Source of the DNA: Minisyncoccota bacterium
GTDB taxonomy: Bacteria; Patescibacteriota; Minisyncoccia; Phycocordibacterales; JABMNX01
Assembly: GCA_965222715.1 (NCBI GenBank)
Contig: OZ244961.1
Location: 462,277 to 526,276 of the forward strand
DNA length: 64,000 nucleotides
Reading direction: 5' to 3'
Positions 5,869 to 53,230 of the stretch are shown here, piece by piece; within the stretch, counting starts at the first letter, position 1; every line of letters starts with the position of its first letter. The position numbers were made by a program, and so were the translations under genes. Below the pieces are notes generated by a model that made no database searches, was not told the origin of the DNA, and saw only the letters and a program-made list of their open reading frames with translations.

Positions 5869-6641
5869 GCTCTTTCAAAAATGTAGTTTTTGACCCCATT
5901 ACCTAATTCAAATTCATTAACAACATTGAAACTGTACTTTTTTACAATTTCAAATATTTCTTTTTTTTTCTCATCTTCAATTTCAATAAGCAAATGTTTA
6001 AGATTTTTATGAGCAAGTGTATTTTTGGCACCATTAAGTACATTAATTTCTGCACCATCAACATCAATCTTTATCATTGTTGGAATTGGAATATTAAAAA
6101 TACGTACACACTCATCAAGACTCATGACTAATAACTGTTGAGTACATGCATCTTTTTTCCTTTGGAATTCACTGAAAGTATGTGTTGCCCCCGAGGAGTT
6201 ATCGTCTAAAGAAAATGATTGAATAATGTTACCTACACCTAACACAAATGGAAGAGGTGTTATATTTCTATTTAATTTGTTAAGGAATATATTATCTTGA
6301 AGCGTTTCTATGTTTTTATACGACGGTTCAAACGCATAGACTTCTATCCCCAAAGATCCAGCAATGAGACTGTATGCACCGATATTTGCACCGATATCAT
6401 AAAAAACAGATTTTTTTTCACCACAAGATTCAAGCCAATTCACTGTCTCAGGTTCTTTTTTAACGCTATTTGCTCGAGTGTAGTATTCACGTAATGTCTG
6501 AGTTGTTATGTATATATCTTTCTTTGCATAATCAAGCTTTCTTACACCATACCAATGGCTTACAAGGCGCTTTATTTTAAAAACACCTAATAAAAATTTC
6601 CATTGAATTTGTTTAATTATAGCCATAAATATGCTATACAC
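5865..6641 (-). CDS. FkbM-family SAM-dependent methyltransferase
   Basis: VFYDIGANIGAYSLIAGSLGIEVYAFEPSYKNIETL matches the FkbM motif. Overlaps the upstream gene by 4 nt. Confidence 0.6.
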   Translation of the reverse strand: MYSIFMAIIKQIQWKFLLGVFKIKRLVSHWYGVRKLDYAKKDIYITTQTLREYYTRANSVKKEPETVNWLESCGEKKSVFYDIGANIGAYSLIAGSLGIEVYAFEPSYKNIETLQDNIFLNKLNRNITPLPFVLGVGNIIQSFSLDDNSSGATHTFSEFQRKKDACTQQLLVMSLDECVRIFNIPIPTMIKIDVDGAEINVLNGAKNTLAHKNLKHLLIEIEDEKKKEIFEIVKKYSFNVVNEFELGNGVKNYIFERA

Positions 6642-6658
6642 TATAGCATAGCGGTACC

Positions 6659-7543
6659 ATGAGAGTACTTACCAAAGAACAAAGAGATTTTTTTCATAAA
6701 AATGGGTATCTTCACCTAAAGAGTTTTTTTACACAAGAGGAAGTGGTGAGTTTCAGAAAAGGATGTCAATTAGACAAACCTGGTGATTCTATGTGTACAC
6801 AAGAATTTAGACACATCATGTTTTCACCTAAAATTATTGGTGTCATGAAAGACATTCTTGGAGAAGAAATTATTTATCCAGGACTCTCTTTAACTCGTAC
6901 AGGAGATTCTCCAAAGAAAGTAGGTAGTCGCAAGTTTCATGCCGATACCGAAGGAGATGATCTAGAGTTCTCTCATCCCTACCCAGTGATTAATACTGGG
7001 ATCTACCTACAAGACCACAAGAACTATAGTGGGTGTCTTAAAATAAGTCCAGGTTCACATAAGTGGCCATGTGTACTTACAGAATCAATTACTCAATCTC
7101 TTAAATTAATTATCAAAAGTCTTCTTAGAGGAGAATTTAAAAAAGCCTATAACATACTGAATTTGCATAAATCAGTGAATATACCATCAGAAGCAGGTGA
7201 TCTGATTATTTGGTATGTTCGCACACATCATTCAGGATATGGCGTGCGACTTAAATTTTTTAAAAATATCTCTCTTCCACCCGTAATTGAAAATTGGATA
7301 CCTTCTTTTTTGCGACTTCCTGATAATCCGAAGCGCGATGTTATGCTCTCAATATTCACTGCACCAAGTAAATATTTAGAAGAATATATTAGAGTACAAA
7401 TTAACAAAGACCGCCGCATTAATCACTACCTACATAATAAATGTCTAGATTCCCCTAAAATACAAAAAATGGCAGAGGAAGCTGGGATTGTAATTCGGAA
7501 CGATGGGTATTATAGAGCATTAAAAATAAATTCTAAGTCCTAA
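6659..7543 (+). CDS. Phytanoyl-CoA dioxygenase (PhyH)-family 2OG oxygenase
   Basis: N-terminal LTKEQRDFFHKNGYLHL. HxD (KFHADTEGDD) plus distal His (GSHKWP, HHSGYG). Confidence 0.45.
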   Translation: MRVLTKEQRDFFHKNGYLHLKSFFTQEEVVSFRKGCQLDKPGDSMCTQEFRHIMFSPKIIGVMKDILGEEIIYPGLSLTRTGDSPKKVGSRKFHADTEGDDLEFSHPYPVINTGIYLQDHKNYSGCLKISPGSHKWPCVLTESITQSLKLIIKSLLRGEFKKAYNILNLHKSVNIPSEAGDLIIWYVRTHHSGYGVRLKFFKNISLPPVIENWIPSFLRLPDNPKRDVMLSIFTAPSKYLEEYIRVQINKDRRINHYLHNKCLDSPKIQKMAEEAGIVIRNDGYYRALKINSKS

Positions 7544-34034: not shown

Positions 34035-34108
34035 GTGCGGATGCCAAGACTCGAACTTGGGACCTCGTCATTATCAGTGACGCGCTCTAACCACCTGAGC
34101 TACACCCG
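34035..34108 (-). tRNA. tRNA-Ile (anticodon GAT)
   Basis: GCGGGTGTAGCTCAGGTGGTTAGAGCGCGTCACTGATAATGACGAGGTCCCAAGTTCGAGTCTTGGCATCCGCA folds as a canonical cloverleaf. CCA is not encoded. Confidence 0.85.
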
Positions 34109-34496
34109 CAAAGTACAGCACATAGTAGCAAAATGAGTCTATAATCTCAACGCCTAGCAGATAACTTAGTGAGTACTTGAAGAATCTTGCAGTATTTGCT
34201 ACCCTCCCTAATGGAATAACCCTAACCTAATTGGAGGCTTTTCGTGTGTCAACGATATAGTGGAAGAAACCATATCCCGCAAGATCAAGGTACGTCGCGT
34301 GAAAACGGAGGTGGCTGCTCCGTTGCCGGCAAGGAAAATAAGTGCCAAGGCAAAAAGAGACTGCCTCGGAAGAGAAAGCGGGACCAAGCATCGAGACCGA
34401 GGAGCGGCTCGATTCTTCAGGCACATTGGGCATGAATACAACAACCGCGCAGATCAGTGATCTGCGCGGTTTCTCGTTACAGCTATCACGGATAGA

Positions 34497-34535
34497 AATA
34501 AAAAACGCCAAAGGTACCTTTGGCGTTTTTTTACG
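34497..34535. terminator. A-run / CGCCAAAGGTACCTTTGGCG hairpin / T-run (bidirectional-terminator-like) inside the 16S-to-tRNA-Ile region
   Basis: Perfect 20-nt palindrome flanked by A7 and T7. Confidence 0.4.
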
Positions 34536-34749
34536 GCTCTGTAGAGCCATTTTTATTAATATACTTTCTTTTGTTCCGTTCAATCTCCAAGTAACGCACT
34601 TCTTGGTTAGCGAGTGTAGCCCCGATATGAAATCGGGACTCCGACAGAACCGTCGGAGATAAGAGTACAACACTATTGCTCTTTCCATGCTCGTACGAGG
34701 CATAGAAGATCGACCGGTTAAGTTGTATACCGTAGTACACAACGTCTCC

Positions 34750-36212
<1,463 letters not shown>

Positions 36213-45774: not shown

Positions 45775-45888
45775 TAAAGCTGGCATCGACCTACTTTCCC
45801 CAACATAGAGTATCATCGGCGCAGAAGGGCTTAACTTCCGTGTTCGGAATGAGAACGGGTGTACCCCCTTCGCTTAAATACCAGCTTT
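45775..45888 (-). rRNA. 5S rRNA
   Basis: Plus strand GGCGCAGAAGGGCTTAACTTCCGTGTTCGGAATGAGAACGGGTGTACC is the reverse complement of the conserved 5S core (CCGAACACGGAAGUUAAGCCC...). Ends are approximate. Confidence 0.55.
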
Positions 45889-46048
45889 AAAGGTGCGAAA
45901 AAATGTAAGAATATAAGCAGCGTTCAGATTTCCTAATAAGAGACAAACGACGAATTAGTACTCCTTGGCTAAACACATTACTGTGCGTACACCGAGAGCC
46001 TATCACCTAATCATCTCTTAGGGGTCTATGATTTCTTATCTTGAGGTT

Positions 46049-46081
<33 letters not shown>

Positions 46082-46225
46082 GTTCCCGACATAGCTACTC
46101 GGCAGTGCTCCTGGCGGAACAGCCGATACACCAGAGGTCAGTTCATTCCGGTCCTCTCGTACTAGGAACAAATCCTCTCAAAAATCGACGCCTACAGCAG
46201 ATTAAGACCAACCTGTCTCACGCAT

Positions 46226-46558
46226 GTTCTCATACATTACTGTATGCATTGGACTGTAGCTTTAACTGACACACCATTACAGTGCACAGATAACTGACGT
46301 TCAGTCTCTACGGGCTGAAAATTAATTTTCATTCCCTCGGTATTGTCCTTTGGAAGAGGATTCTACCGATATTAGTCAGCTTGTTCCCGATGTAATATCG
46401 GGACCGCCGTGATTGGATTGCTTAATTCCCAACCCTTTATTAAAGGGTTGGGATCCCGATTGTTACATCGGGACTTATTTCATAGACGAAAAGAATCGAT
46501 TTGTGTCGTTAGAGTGAGCGCAGACTGTGTAGCATTCCATTCAAAGAATCAAATACTA
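46226..46558 (-). other. ORF-less intron-like insertion (~330 nt) in 23S domain V
   Basis: The 23S blocks GAGCTGGGTT.AGA.CGT and CGTGAGACAG are adjacent in E. coli near position 2585. Here they are separated by ~330 nt with no rRNA counterpart. No ORF over 60 aa spans the whole insert. Confidence 0.5.
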
Positions 46559-46694
46559 CACGGTCTGAACCCAGCTCGCGTACCTTTTTAATTGACGAAC
46601 AGTCAAACCCTTGGGACCTTCTCCAGCCCCAGGATAAGGTGAGCCGACATCGAGGTGCCGAACATTGCCGTCGATATGGACTCTTGGGCAATAC

Positions 46695-46728
<34 letters not shown>

Positions 46729-47210
46729 AATCTCCAGTGCCGTCTAAAGGCAACTGTCGGTTCACTATGCTCCGCTTTCGCGCCTGCTCGAGATGTACCT
46801 CTTGCAGTCAAGCCCTCTTTTGCCATTACACTATCGGCACGGTTTCCATTCGCGCCTAGAGGACCTTAATAGACTCCTCCGTTACTCTTTAGGAGGAGAG
46901 CGCCCCACTCAAACTACCCACCAGATACTGTCTCTCGACGTTTTTTCCGTCGAGGTTAGAGAATGCAAAATAAAAGAGTGGTATTTCACTGACGACTCCA
47001 CTACCCCCAAAAGGGTAGCTTCAAAGTCTCCCACCTATCCTACGCAGTTATTTCACACCCCCAATATCAAGCTGTAGTAAAGCTCCCGGGGTCTTTTCGT
47101 CTAGCTGCAGGTAACCGGCATCTTCACCGGTATTGCATTTTCACCGAGCTCTTCCTCGAGACAGTGCCCCAGTCGTTACACCATTCGTGCACGTCTAAAA
47201 TTACTAGACT

Positions 47211-47257
<47 letters not shown>

Positions 47258-48078
47258 CAGGGCTTACACAGTCCAGCATATCTCTAAAAGAAATATACCC
47301 CCCGTGCTTAACCTTCTGGCATTGGTCAGGCGTCACCCCCTATACATCCTCTTACGAGTTCGCAGGGAGCTGTGTTTTTGGTAAACAGTCGCCAGGGCTC
47401 TTTAGCTGCGGCCTACGCAGCCAATAGAGGATTCGATATTGTACATATCGAACACAACACCTATATTGTCTCAATTATTTTCTTCTCAGTTTGAACTCCT
47501 CTATTGGCTGCACAGGCAGACCTTATTCCGAAGTTACGGTCGCTGTTTTGCCGAGTTCCTTGAGGAAGACTCACTCGTTCGCCTTGGTCTACTCGACCTG
47601 ATCACCTGTGTTGGTTTGCGGTACGGTTTTACGAATACTGAAGCTTAGAGGCTTTTCTTGGAAGCGTGCTCCTCTGAATTTGCTTTGGCGAACCGCCACA
47701 TTTCCGCTCTTCTTGGAGTTAGTGTTGCCCGGACTTCCCTAAGCAACCTCCTCAAAGCACGGACGCAAATCCGATAATGCGCTCAGAGTACAACACTCCG
47801 TCCCCTCGTCGCATATTCGTAAAGTCATGGAATATTGACCATGTGTCCATCGTCTCCCCCCTTCGGGATCGACTTAGGCCCGACTAACCCTTCGCTGATC
47901 TACATCGCGAAGGAAACCTTGATCTTTCGGCGGGCAGGAATCTCACCTGCCTTGCGGTTACTCGTGCCAACATTCTCACTTCCATACGCTCCACCATGGG
48001 TTATCCCTTTGGCTTCATCGCAGAATGGAACGCTCTCCTACCGCTTATGAACTTCATTGAGGACCTAAACGAGCGTTT

Positions 48079-48155
48079 AGGAAAATCTTGGTTGCCGCCG
48101 GGGAGATTCGAACTCCCGACCTCGTCCTCACGAAAGACGCGCTCTACCACTGAGC
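48079..48155 (-). tRNA. tRNA-like element (Thr-like, anticodon CGT) embedded in the 23S intervening sequence; imperfect acceptor stem
   Basis: GCCGTTCGTAGCTCAGTGGTAGAGCGCGTCTTTCGTGAGGACGAGGTCGGGAGTTCGAATCTCCCCGGCGGCAACCA. Canonical D-arm, anticodon arm (loop TTCGTGA) and T-arm. The acceptor has a mismatch and an extra nt. Confidence 0.4.
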
Positions 48156-48185
48156 TACGAACGGCATTTTATCCAAGATTGTGTT

Positions 48186-48261
48186 TGGCTGAGGTGGCAG
48201 GGGTCGAACCTGCAACCTCTCGCGTTTTAAGCGAGTGCTCTACCATCTGAGCTTCACCCCA
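48186..48261 (-). tRNA. tRNA-like element (Phe-like, anticodon AAA) embedded in the 23S intervening sequence
   Basis: TGGGGTGAAGCTCAGATGGTAGAGCACTCGCTTAAAACGCGAGAGGTTGCAGGTTCGACCCCTGCCACCTCAGCCA. Full cloverleaf with encoded CCA. Anticodon loop TTAAAAC gives A34-A35-A36, which is unusual. Confidence 0.4.
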
Positions 48262-49096
48262 TTCACCAAACAACAAAAAGAACTATGGAAGGCTTGATAC
48301 AATGACCCAAACCAACCACACGATAATCAAGGAAGTTCCCACTCCCCCAATGATAGTATTTCGGTTTAGTGCCATAGCACACCTCCTATTTTCCTCAATG
48401 AAATTCACAAGCCCCCAGTTTCGGTATCATACTTAGCCCCGATCATTTGCGGCGCGACATCTCTGAATGAGTGAGCTGTTACGCTATCTTTAAAGGATGG
48501 CTGCCTCTAAGCCAACCTCCTCATTGTCTGAGAAATCTCACCTCCTTAAGTGCACTGAGTATGAATTTTGGGACCTTAACTTGGGATCTGGGCTGTTTCC
48601 CTTTTGACCAGTGGAGCTTAGCCCCCACAGTCTAACTGCCGTACTGTAACTGTTGGTATTCGGAGTTTGATAGGAGTGACGAGGTTTCCCCCTATTCACA
48701 CCTTCCAGTGCTCTACCCCCAACAGGATCATACGACGCTAACCCTAAAGCTATTTCGGAGAGAACCAGCTATTACTCGGTTCGATTAGCTTTTCACTGCG
48801 TACCACAGGTCATCCGAATGCGTTGAACGACATTTCGGTTCGGGCCTCCATCTGTGTTTCCACAAACTTCACCCTGCCCATGGTAAGCTCACCGAGCTTC
48901 GGGTCGTATGCACACTACACTTATTTCGCGCTATTCACACTCGGTTTCCCTGTGACTCCACCCGAAAAGGGCTTAGCCTGCAATATACATACACTCGTTG
49001 GCTCATTCTTCAATAGGCACGCGGTCATGGCGCAAGCGCCACTCCCACTGCTTGTAAGCGTGTAGTTTCAGGTCTATTTCACTGTCCTCACCGGAC

Positions 49097-49135
<39 letters not shown>

Positions 49136-49861
49136 ATCTGAAAAAGTATTTAGCCTTACCAGTTAGTGCTGGCAGATTCACTCAAGCTATTCGTGTCTTG
49201 AGCTACTCAAGAACAACAACAAAAGAGTTGTAGAAGTTTTCACATACGGGACTGTTACCCTCTGGGGTGCTTCTTCCCAAAAGCTTCTGTTAACTTTACA
49301 ATTTGTAACTCTTCTTGTTTTAAAAACAAACGTTGTTGCCTTACAACCCCCGATACCACCTCCGTCACCTGACCATACAGATGGCAGAGGTGAAATCAGG
49401 TTTGGGCTACTCCCCGTTCGCTCGCCGCTACTACGGGAATTCCTATTGGTCTCTTTTCCTCCAGGTACTGAGATGTTTCACTTCCCTGGGTGCGCTCCTT
49501 TGCGTCAAGCACAAAGGTAACTACCTAACGTAGTTGGGTTTCCCCATTCGGAAATCTCCGGGTCAAAGGTTGCTAGTCACCTCGCCGAAGCTTATCGCAG
49601 ACATGCCACGCCCTTCATCGCCTTTTTCAGTCTAGGCATCCACCACACGCTCTTCAGATCTCCTATTAGGAAATCTAAAAACCGCTTATAAACTTACATT
49701 TTGTTTATGTCCCATCTTTCTTTTTGTTTAAAGAAAAAGATGGGACTTACCTGCATGAACCTCCTCTCTCCGAAAGTGTTGAAAAGAGGTTCAAGCTATT
49801 ATGACGTTGTCAAAGAGTCGCGTAATTCCCTATGAGCTTTTATATATCACTAGTCATCAAA

Positions 49862-53170: not shown

Positions 53171-53230
53171 AGTATCTTAATTACCTAGTAATCCCGATGC
53201 TTTGATCGGGACCCCGATAGTGTATCGGGG

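Follow-up and report, generated by a model that had tools for sequence, protein, structure and literature searches.

The chloroplast 23S rRNA gene of Chlamydomonas reinhardtii contains an intron, Cr.LSU, at the same position as the element analyzed here; the homing site of I-CreI spans U2593/C2594. Cr.LSU is organellar, 888 nt long and contains an open reading frame (ORF), and I-CreI is of the single-motif LAGLIDADG type, as in the long members of the intron family described below. The element analyzed here is a 337-nt insert at 46223-46559 (minus strand), in the 23S rRNA gene of a 64,000-nt stretch of DNA from a Minisyncoccota bacterium (contig OZ244961.1, positions 462,277 to 526,276; hereafter, the window). 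It is very probably a group I intron without a homing-endonuclease gene, located in the loop of helix 93 beside the peptidyl-transferase center, with splicing predicted from its structure. That it is a group I intron removed from the precursor by splicing is, in our judgment, highly likely.

Bacterial introns at this position have been described. The L2593 introns of thermophilic cyanobacteria (Synechococcus sp. C9, S. lividus C1 and Thermosynechococcus elongatus) are about 745 nt long, contain a single-motif LAGLIDADG endonuclease gene and are characterized by about 65 nt of P7.1/P7.2 and by short P2 and P5 (Haugen et al. 2007, PMC1995217). The window insert has the same site and similarly short P5 and P2, but lacks both the endonuclease gene and P7.1/P7.2 and has a 5' domain of about 148 nt. 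Within the candidate phyla radiation (CPR), position 2593 is a frequent site, called 23IS12, for group I introns and LAGLIDADG sequences; the Rfam model could assign just 45% of the 23S insertions to group I (Tsurumaki et al. 2024, PMC11270868). These CPR introns share host phylum, site and family with the insert in the window; long members contain LAGLIDADG_1, and many fall below the Rfam cut-off. In contrast, the window copy has no ORF, and the survey, in its accessible parts, covers sites and endonucleases and not the displaced guide and anti-exon architecture described below. A group I intron is thus to be expected here, as such introns at 23S position 2593 are already catalogued in Patescibacteria, and an earlier note on this DNA, which had called the position a known large-subunit (LSU) rRNA hotspot for group I introns and homing endonucleases, was right for both the cyanobacterial L2593 site and the frequent CPR site (PMC1995217 and PMC11270868). 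The window intron appears to differ from the described L2593 introns in having no ORF, no P7.1/P7.2 and a 5' domain.

Borders of the insert and its predicted group I core

The 23S rRNA gene occupies 45934-49666 on the minus strand (3733 nt; an end-to-end match to the 2925-position bacterial LSU model, 2374 bits) and is followed by the 5S gene at 45778-45885 (model scan). The LSU model places a single insertion of 343 nt between ...GGGUUCAGACCGU and ACAGGUUGG; the model match runs to ...GAGCUGGGUUCAGACCGU, leaves 343 nt unaligned and resumes at ACAGGUUGGUC. By direct reading, the insert extends from G 46559 to G 46223, a total of 337 nt (GUAGUAUUUG...GAGAACAUG), the final base of the 5' exon is U 46560, and the first base of the 3' exon is C 46222 (CGUGAGACAGG). 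Because the bases flanking the two junctions differ, the border is fixed and does not slide. It falls between U2593 and C2594 of 23S in Escherichia coli numbering (the T before CGTGAGACAG is nt 2595 in the annotated 2906-nt E. coli 23S and is taken as U2593 of the 2904-nt reference), and intron nucleotide i corresponds to window position 46560 - i. The exon shows a compensatory change of its own in helix 93 (GACCGU/ACAGGUU, not GAACGU/ACAGUUC), and therefore GACCGU belongs to the exon. The insert and the exon ends are as follows.

46223-46559, minus strand: the whole predicted group I intron, 337 nt, after U2593 (LSU model insertion, direct reading, RF00028 match, same-site homologs).
46560-46572, minus strand: last 13 bases of the 5' exon, GGGUUCAGACCGU (G2581-U2593); GACCGU is the exon strand of the predicted P1, and all 13 bases can pair with the anti-exon.
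46213-46222, minus strand: start of the 3' exon, CGUGAGACAG (C2594-G2603; LSU model, direct reading).

These borders are 1-3 nt from those of the earlier note, which had put an insertion of about 330 nt at 46226-46558, splitting the conserved run around E. coli 2580-2595; the LSU model places its single insertion there, and does not absorb the insert as an ordinary helix, a result that the note had named as refuting. Other parts of that description also hold. The longest ORF within the insert on the rRNA strand is 31 aa (the note had seen no long ORF), the two CCCGAT-N-ATCGGG hairpins are present at 46386-46402 and 46455-46472, and the gene, proposed to be about 3.7 kb with an intervening sequence (IVS) in helix 45, is 3733 nt long including a 349-nt helix-45 insertion at 48051-48399. 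The fold of the insert has z = -8.0 relative to shuffled sequences and homologs occupy the same site in many genomes; the insert is thus not a chance feature.

The homologs come from a scan, with each species represented by a single genome, for exon GAGCTGGGTTYAGAMCGT with any base but C after it. The scan gave at least 120 loci, which, among the matches listed, are nearly all metagenome-assembled genomes of Patescibacteria, with some Acidimicrobiia and a few others; at least 87 loci have a bounded insert of 213-835 nt closed by CGTGAGACAG (individual loci are given L-numbers below). BLAST similarity to the window intron spans nt ~140-337 in many same-site inserts, and by BLAST and alignment the window intron is homologous in its core to the other L2593 introns. 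A 21-sequence core alignment of same-site inserts (alignment A1) was folded with RNAalifold, which recovers P2, P3, P4, P5, P6, P8 and P9; the P7 pseudoknot was added for the pair counts. The elements of the core in the window are listed below.

46386-46402, minus strand: P2, CCCGAUauuacAUCGGG, which is the second CCCGAT hairpin; placed by alignment position, with 6 of 6 pairs covarying and a sequence different from that in the closest relatives.
46375-46381, minus strand: 5' strand of P3, AGCUGAC; compensatory changes in 6 of 6 pairs, 100% paired.
46337-46369, minus strand: P4-P5 arm (P4 UCGGUA/UACCGA, J4/5 GAA, P5 UCCU/AGGA, J5/4 CAA), from the alignment fold.
46312-46336, minus strand: P6/P6a, GGGAAUGAAAAUUAAUUUUCAGCCC, a 25-nt hairpin; 6 of 7 pairs covary, and relatives have a LAGLIDADG ORF or a tRNA at this site.
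46302-46311, minus strand: J6/7 GUAGA and 5' strand of P7, GACUG (alignment A1; GUAGAGACU is invariant in the family).
46292-46298, minus strand: 3' strand of P3, GUCAGUU, 3 nt after P7, with no P7.1/P7.2 (alignment A1).
46264-46291, minus strand: P8 hairpin; 5 of 5 pairs covary.
46252-46256, minus strand: 3' strand of P7, CAGUC, forming the pseudoknot with 46302-46306, after J8/7 AAAGCUA; 100% paired.
46231-46246, minus strand: P9, CAUACAguaaUGUAUG, with a GUAA tetraloop; 5 of 6 pairs covary.

Across the 21 sequences, 96.2% of the cells of P2-P9, including the P3/P7 pseudoknot, are paired, compared to 36-40% when the partners are slid. Compensatory changes on both sides are found in 32 of the 44 pairs, and none of 500 shuffles reached the observed values. 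P7 (GACUG/CAGUC) is paired in all 21 sequences, and its inner pair alternates between G-C and A-U (5/21). The blocks CACGGCGG, UCGG...CCGA, GUAGAGACU and AGUCC are invariant in alignment A1, and the window intron holds every invariant core position of the family. P2 in the sub-lineage of the window lacks the GNRA-type loop found in most of the family. We read this covarying fold, with its P3/P7 pseudoknot, as a group I core with a predicted guanosine site.

The match to the Rfam group I model, a check that the earlier note had proposed, is full-length (RF00028; 46230-46454, model positions 1-253, E = 1.6e-8 in a 501-nt search) and scores 39.0 bits, under the curated 50-bit gathering score. As a result, the intron goes unreported in gathering-threshold Rfam scans and is reported in an E-value scan. 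Matches to microRNA, MtlS and U4 models in the E-value scan were rejected as chance matches on the 5' hairpin, and no group II family, for which the earlier note had also proposed a search, was among the model matches up to E = 10. L072, a family member aligned in A1, scores 68.2 bits for RF00028, above the cut-off, and is the one of nine same-site CPR-type introns scanned that the gathering threshold reports (L121, L127, L128, L129, L021, L110, L108 and L009 are not reported). The RF00028 cut-off is an operational threshold and no biochemical property.

Exon guide, 5' domain and anti-exon

Recognition of the splice sites would depend on three short elements in the intron.

46402-46407, minus strand: predicted internal guide GCGGUC (nt 153-158), which would form P1 with exon GACCGU and place U2593.G153 at the splice site (exon/guide covariation; CACGGCGG invariant in alignment A1).
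46408-46411, minus strand: P10 strand CACG (nt 149-152), complementary to 3' exon CGUG (direct reading; 59 of 67 CPR-type introns have CACG before the guide).
46223, minus strand: terminal G (omega-G), directly before C2594 (direct reading).

The intron ends in ...AACAUG and the 3' exon begins with CGUGAG. A terminal G is found in 86 of the 87 bounded same-site inserts listed; only L009 departs from this, with a terminal U, and there the 3' border may have been placed wrongly.

The family divides into two classes by exon and guide. In the short-loop class (n = 26; mainly Actinomycetota and some Saccharibacteria), the exon ends in GAACGU and CAYU-GCGUYC is found at approximately intron nt 5-16. 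In the CPR class (n = 67, including the window), the exon ends in GACCGU and CACG-GCGGNN begins at a median of nt 127 (range 11-304). The P1 loop of this class holds 60-300 nt, and its first element is always a hairpin, variable in sequence, that begins at intron nt 1 or 2. At the fourth position of the guide, U is found in 26/26 introns with exon A2590 and G in 64/67 with exon C2590; thus, 90 of 93 family members covary. L071 has the short-loop architecture with a C2590 exon, and its guide is GCGGUC. Because the fourth guide base follows A2590/C2590 of the exon, we assign GCGGUC (46402-46407) as the putative internal guide that forms P1 with U2593 opposite G. Its distance from the 5' splice site, 152 nt in the window intron compared to about 11 nt in non-CPR relatives, is atypical. 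The distal guide is probably the catalytic P1, because the strand 5' of the anti-exon (the other candidate, described below) is a hypervariable hairpin arm with no P10 and because the short-loop relatives have no anti-exon.

Splicing would then proceed as follows. The pre-23S RNA would fold the P3-P9 core with its P3/P7 pseudoknot, and the guide GCGGUC would pair with the last six exon bases, GACCGU, to form P1 with U2593.G at the cleavage site. Exogenous guanosine would cut the 5' splice site. The CACG that immediately precedes the guide would pair with CGUG of the 3' exon to form P10, and the terminal G would enter the G site. The exons would be joined and helix 93 would be restored.

The segment between the 5' splice site and the guide, a domain specific to CPR introns that fills the P1 loop, contains the following.

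46529-46559, minus strand: 5' hairpin, intron nt 1-31, GUAGUAUUUGAUUC/GAAUGGAAUGCUAC (fold; sequence hypervariable).
46516-46528, minus strand: anti-exon ACAGUCUGCGCUC at nt 32-44, the complement of exon GGGUUCAGACCGU; its partner for U2593 is A (fold, family consensus).
46474-46515, minus strand: rest of the conserved 5' domain (nt 45-86), ACUCUAACGACACAAAUCGA and a small hairpin with loop UCGUCU; near-identical in the syntenic L127, L121 and L122.
46428-46473, minus strand: 46-nt insertion (nt 87-132) seen in this genome only, with hairpins CCCGAUguaacaAUCGGG and CCCAACCCuuuaauaaaGGGUUGGG (alignment A2; L122 by reading).

Together, the hairpin and the anti-exon bury the 5' splice site in a single helix (46516-46572; -29.6 kcal/mol, z = -7.0). 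This arrangement is common in the family. The first or second intron base is paired, as the start of a hairpin, in 58/59 relatives, and the anti-exon follows directly after the hairpin with the consensus RCNRUCUGARYCC, at least 11 of its 13 positions pairing in 59/67 CPR-type introns. In the minimum-energy folds, U2593 pairs with the first base of the element and G2592 with its C, each in 59/59; the base opposite U2593 is A in 52/59 and G in 7/59. Exon UUUAGA is accompanied by anti-exon UCUAAA in 4/4 introns. Beyond the anti-exon, the 5' domain is heterogeneous across the family, and MAFFT with RNAalifold on 52 sequences gave no consensus fold for it. A UCGUYU loop as a universal second exon-binding site was rejected (only ~26/63 members, ~40%; exon variation is too small for a test), as was the idea that the displaced AACAG finds a new partner in a CUGUU motif further downstream (8/58 members compared to 4.4 expected).

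The 46-nt insertion consists of the first CCCGAU hairpin and a hairpin CCCAACCC...GGGUUGGG, and is missing from L127 and L121 (alignment A2) and from L122 (sequence reading). Not foreseen by the earlier note, one of the two CCCGAU hairpins of the insert is thus the P2 of the intron and the other is part of an insertion unique to this genome. The 46 nt do not look like a repeated mobile element: the window contains no second whole copy, and there is no target duplication, because the flanking AAUAAG/AAUUAAG also occur in relatives. Nor are the 93 nt between ACAGUCUG and AAUCC one simple insertion; most of them are common to relatives and just 46 nt are unique.

Competition at a 5' splice site has a counterpart in the Tetrahymena pre-rRNA, where P(-1), a hairpin of the 5' exon, is an alternative to P1 and can modulate splicing. 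P(-1) is an exon-exon hairpin, whereas the competitor in the window is intron-encoded, has 11-13 bp, spans the splice site and is conserved in the family. We suggest that the exon/anti-exon helix would form first, during transcription, and would hold and shield the exon strand of the peptidyl-transferase center. Before catalysis, the splice-site end of this helix (4-6 bp, with U2593-A) would be exchanged for the guide (U2593.G). The invariant part of the minimal P1 is CCGU/GCGG, and the proximal helix may be accessory, either as a tether for exon bases 2581-2589 beside this minimal P1 or as a protective or delaying structure. In a delaying role, its final 4-6 pairs would have to give way to the guide. 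That the anti-exon helix truly regulates or tethers is conceivable, if somewhat doubtful. In its broader form, our tentative proposal, possible and not probable, is that CPR-type L2593 introns carry a second, intron-encoded exon-binding element, made of the nt-1 hairpin and the 13-nt anti-exon on G2581-U2593. This element could act as a conformational switch or tether that keeps the 5' splice site and the exon sequestered until its last few pairs are displaced by the distant guide (GCGG), and so couples splicing to 23S folding or 50S assembly. Another possible role is that of a longer guide with which introns that lack an endonuclease gene would reverse-splice. The accessible parts of PMC11270868 and PMC1995217 contain no description of the 5' domain or anti-exon, which may be described elsewhere.

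Related introns and alternative readings

Long members of both classes contain an ORF with an AGFLDGDGS motif ahead of J6/7, and in L084 and L046, two long introns of the CPR class, the ORFs match Pfam LAGLIDADG_1 (PF00961). The LAGLIDADG-bearing relatives of the GAACGU class are 609-835 nt long, near the 744-748 nt of the cyanobacterial L2593 introns (PMC1995217). Two short relatives, L111 and L026, have extra hairpins between P7 and the 3' strand of P3 that we read as P7.1/P7.2, as in the cyanobacterial introns. Because the window copy has no ORF above 31 aa and its P6 is a 25-nt hairpin, we regard it as an endonuclease-less derivative, and not a mobile intron/endonuclease unit, that appears to have lost, or never had, the endonuclease gene.

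In some relatives, the place that the LAGLIDADG ORF has in others is taken by a tRNA nested in the P6 loop. Two family members have this arrangement: L108, with a tRNA-Arg(UCU) at 2647-2719 (with CCA, 70 bits), and L009, with a tRNA-Leu(UAG) at 1885-1960 (58 bits) and a second tRNA-like sequence. The intron of L092 contains, at nt ~205-330, a tRNA-like sequence ending in CCA that was not called by ARAGORN.

Proteins named Candidatus Kaiserbacteria, Pacebacteria or Paceibacterota share 78-82% identity with the neighboring RodA protein, and the host is a Parcubacteria-type bacterium of the Patescibacteria (CPR). Relatives were found through RodA homologs, and six have the same gene order (L10, L7/L12, ..., 23S, 5S, hypothetical, RodA, ...) with RodA 73-82% identical. 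A homologous intron of 304-567 nt is at the same site in five of the six; in the sixth, L125, the 2593 site is empty and a LAGLIDADG_1 ORF lies elsewhere in its 23S (6996-7469). The intron of the window has the same architecture as those of its closest relatives, L127 and L121 (alignment A2), and differs by the 46-nt insertion and a different P2. It is probably a vertically inherited endonuclease-less derivative, judging from these relatives. Other 23S introns are also found among relatives. L122 has a further group I intron, not present in the window, at 6172-6455 (87.5 bits), upstream of its 2593 site, and L116 has an RF00028 match at 6747-7076 (82.5 bits), its 2593 site not having been located. 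Intron content thus varies among genomes of identical gene order.

The intron-like nature proposed by the earlier note is borne out, with a group I reading supported by the RF00028 match, the covarying fold, the guide with its U.G, the P10 strand and the terminal G. Several points nevertheless weigh against a spliced group I intron with the anti-exon described above. We infer splicing from structure alone, the RF00028 score and those of most close relatives are below the gathering score, and P2 of this lineage has lost the GNRA-type loop common in the family. The far guide competes with a much more stable U2593-A helix, which could slow or block formation of P1. The covariation of the anti-exon concerns one exon position in four genomes, exon variation is small, and the choice of the best complementary 13-mer is partly circular. 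Finally, a 23S group I intron of Simkania is called unspliced in the title of a paper in the reference list of PMC11270868. The low score, the stable competitor at the 5' splice site, the lost P2 tetraloop together with the extra 46-nt insertion, the lack of a maturase-like ORF and the Simkania precedent could all fit an element that is group I by descent and no longer self-splicing, either retained in mature 23S or removed with the help of a protein. We find this very unlikely, as all family-invariant core positions are intact, all helices pair, and the guide, P10 strand and terminal G are perfect. In addition, the same architecture is found in dozens of species, which argues for selection on function, and the site splits helix 93 next to A2602, where 337 nt kept in the mature rRNA would be likely to upset the catalytic center.

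The identity of P1 raises a separate question. The proximal hairpin, formed by exon GGGUUCAGACCGU with ACAGUCUG..., has the look of a classic P1 stem-loop, extends across the splice site in 59/59 folds, covaries with the exon in its exon-pairing part and has a G opposite U2593 in 7/59 members. It could be the true P1, with cleavage at a U-A (in a minority, U.G) and some other role for CACGGCGGUC. However, A and not G is opposite the splice-site U in 52/59, no sequence capable of forming P10 lies 5' of the anti-exon, where the strand is a hypervariable hairpin arm, and the relatives without the hairpin (the 26 with exon GAACGU, L071 and L026) have a CAYU-GCGKYC guide alone, in the canonical place, that is homologous to CACGGCGG and covaries with the exon. 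A proximal P1 is therefore very improbable. The long duplex at the 5' end might also bring to mind an RNase III-type intervening sequence, as in helices 25 and 45, that would be excised without re-ligation and leave a fragmented 23S; the insertion is at a hairpin loop (helix 93), and the same gene has a helix-45 insertion. This we consider most improbable of all given the full covarying group I core, the guide, the P10 strand and the terminal G, the lack of a stem between the two ends of the insert in the fold, and the location of the helix 93 loop outside the known IVS sites (23IS2 and 23IS4 in PMC11270868).

Other features of the rRNA genes and implications

The helix-45 insertion (48051-48399, minus strand, 349 nt) carries two tRNA genes on the rRNA strand, at 48186-48261 and 48089-48166. 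They are a tRNA-Phe with an odd anticodon, AAA (61.9 bits, encoded 3' ...G-CCA), and a tRNA-Thr(CGU) (50 bits). Their presence would imply that the 23S precursor is cut by tRNA-processing enzymes and that mature 23S consists of two fragments. Six other Patescibacteria loci have one or two tRNA genes inside 23S, in the same orientation as the rRNA and 1.3-1.8 kb into it; their position in helix 45 is judged by distance alone.

L072, 2970-3135: tRNA gene or genes in 23S.
L021, 4892-5046: tRNA gene or genes in 23S.
L116, 5808-5994: tRNA gene or genes in 23S.
L110, 1767-1978: tRNA gene or genes in 23S.
L122, 4587-4660: tRNA gene or genes in 23S.
L125, 5864-5937: tRNA gene or genes in 23S.

Two of the six share the gene order of the window. 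The identities of the tRNAs in these 23S genes differ (Val and Gly; Ala and one without an assigned identity; Ala and Val; Trp), and the helix-45 insertion thus resembles an internal spacer whose tRNA cargo can be exchanged. A literature search on tRNA genes inside bacterial 23S genes found nothing relevant.

The tRNA scan found no tRNA in the 23S-5S spacer of the window itself. The same spacer in L121 (8339-8496), L127 (3476-3612) and L122 (8396-8524) contains matches of 129-158 nt to the tRNA model (37-40 bits) beside a normal tRNA. Possibly they are tRNA genes with introns, a type that has been reported in Patescibacteria (PMC13011429).

The rRNA genes of the window are unlinked (34035-36210 and 45778-49666). 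The 16S gene (34751-36210), with a downstream tRNA-Ile(GAU), is 9.7 kb from 23S-5S. Genes for SecDF, sugar transferase and RodA occupy the interval, and all of these lie on the minus strand; L122, L125 and L128 have the same arrangement.

The window contains five copies of the hairpin (U)CCCGAU-loop-AUCGGG(A), compared to 0.00 expected from shuffles; the stem is constant, whereas the loops, of 5-6 nt, vary. The window scan placed the five hairpins as follows.

34621-34637: CCCGAU hairpin in the 16S-tRNA-Ile spacer.
46386-46402: CCCGAU hairpin in the intron, its P2.
46455-46472: CCCGAU hairpin in the intron.
53193-53210: CCCGAU hairpin, one of a tandem pair in the rplJ-rplL spacer.
53213-53229: CCCGAU hairpin, the other of that pair.

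The 5' domain of the L072 intron has, at about the same place, an adjacent pair of hairpins with stems CCCGAC/GUCGGG and CCCCGAU/AUCGGGG. As a general CPR motif the hairpin was rejected, with only 5 matches in 129 other CPR loci. It could be a palindrome like the repetitive extragenic palindromes (REP) or a hairpin by which a protein binds to highly expressed transcripts.

For annotation, the 23S gene of the window should be considered intact, and the mature rRNA is to be read as 45934-46222 joined to 46560-49666. More generally, most introns of this CPR family go unreported at the Rfam cut-off, and surveys that rely on it under-count group I introns at the site. Therefore, part of the "unclassified" insertions in CPR 23S genes are probably ordinary group I introns.

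The 5' domain merits the attention of specialists, since it separates the guide from the splice site by more than 100 nt and is complementary to 13 exon bases of the peptidyl-transferase center. If there is indeed a second exon-binding element, it would be an undescribed variant of group I introns, loosely like the two-part exon recognition of group II introns. Should the anti-exon control or aid splicing, rRNA maturation would be under a simple, experimentally accessible intron-encoded switch, in organisms with a reduced machinery for ribosome biogenesis.

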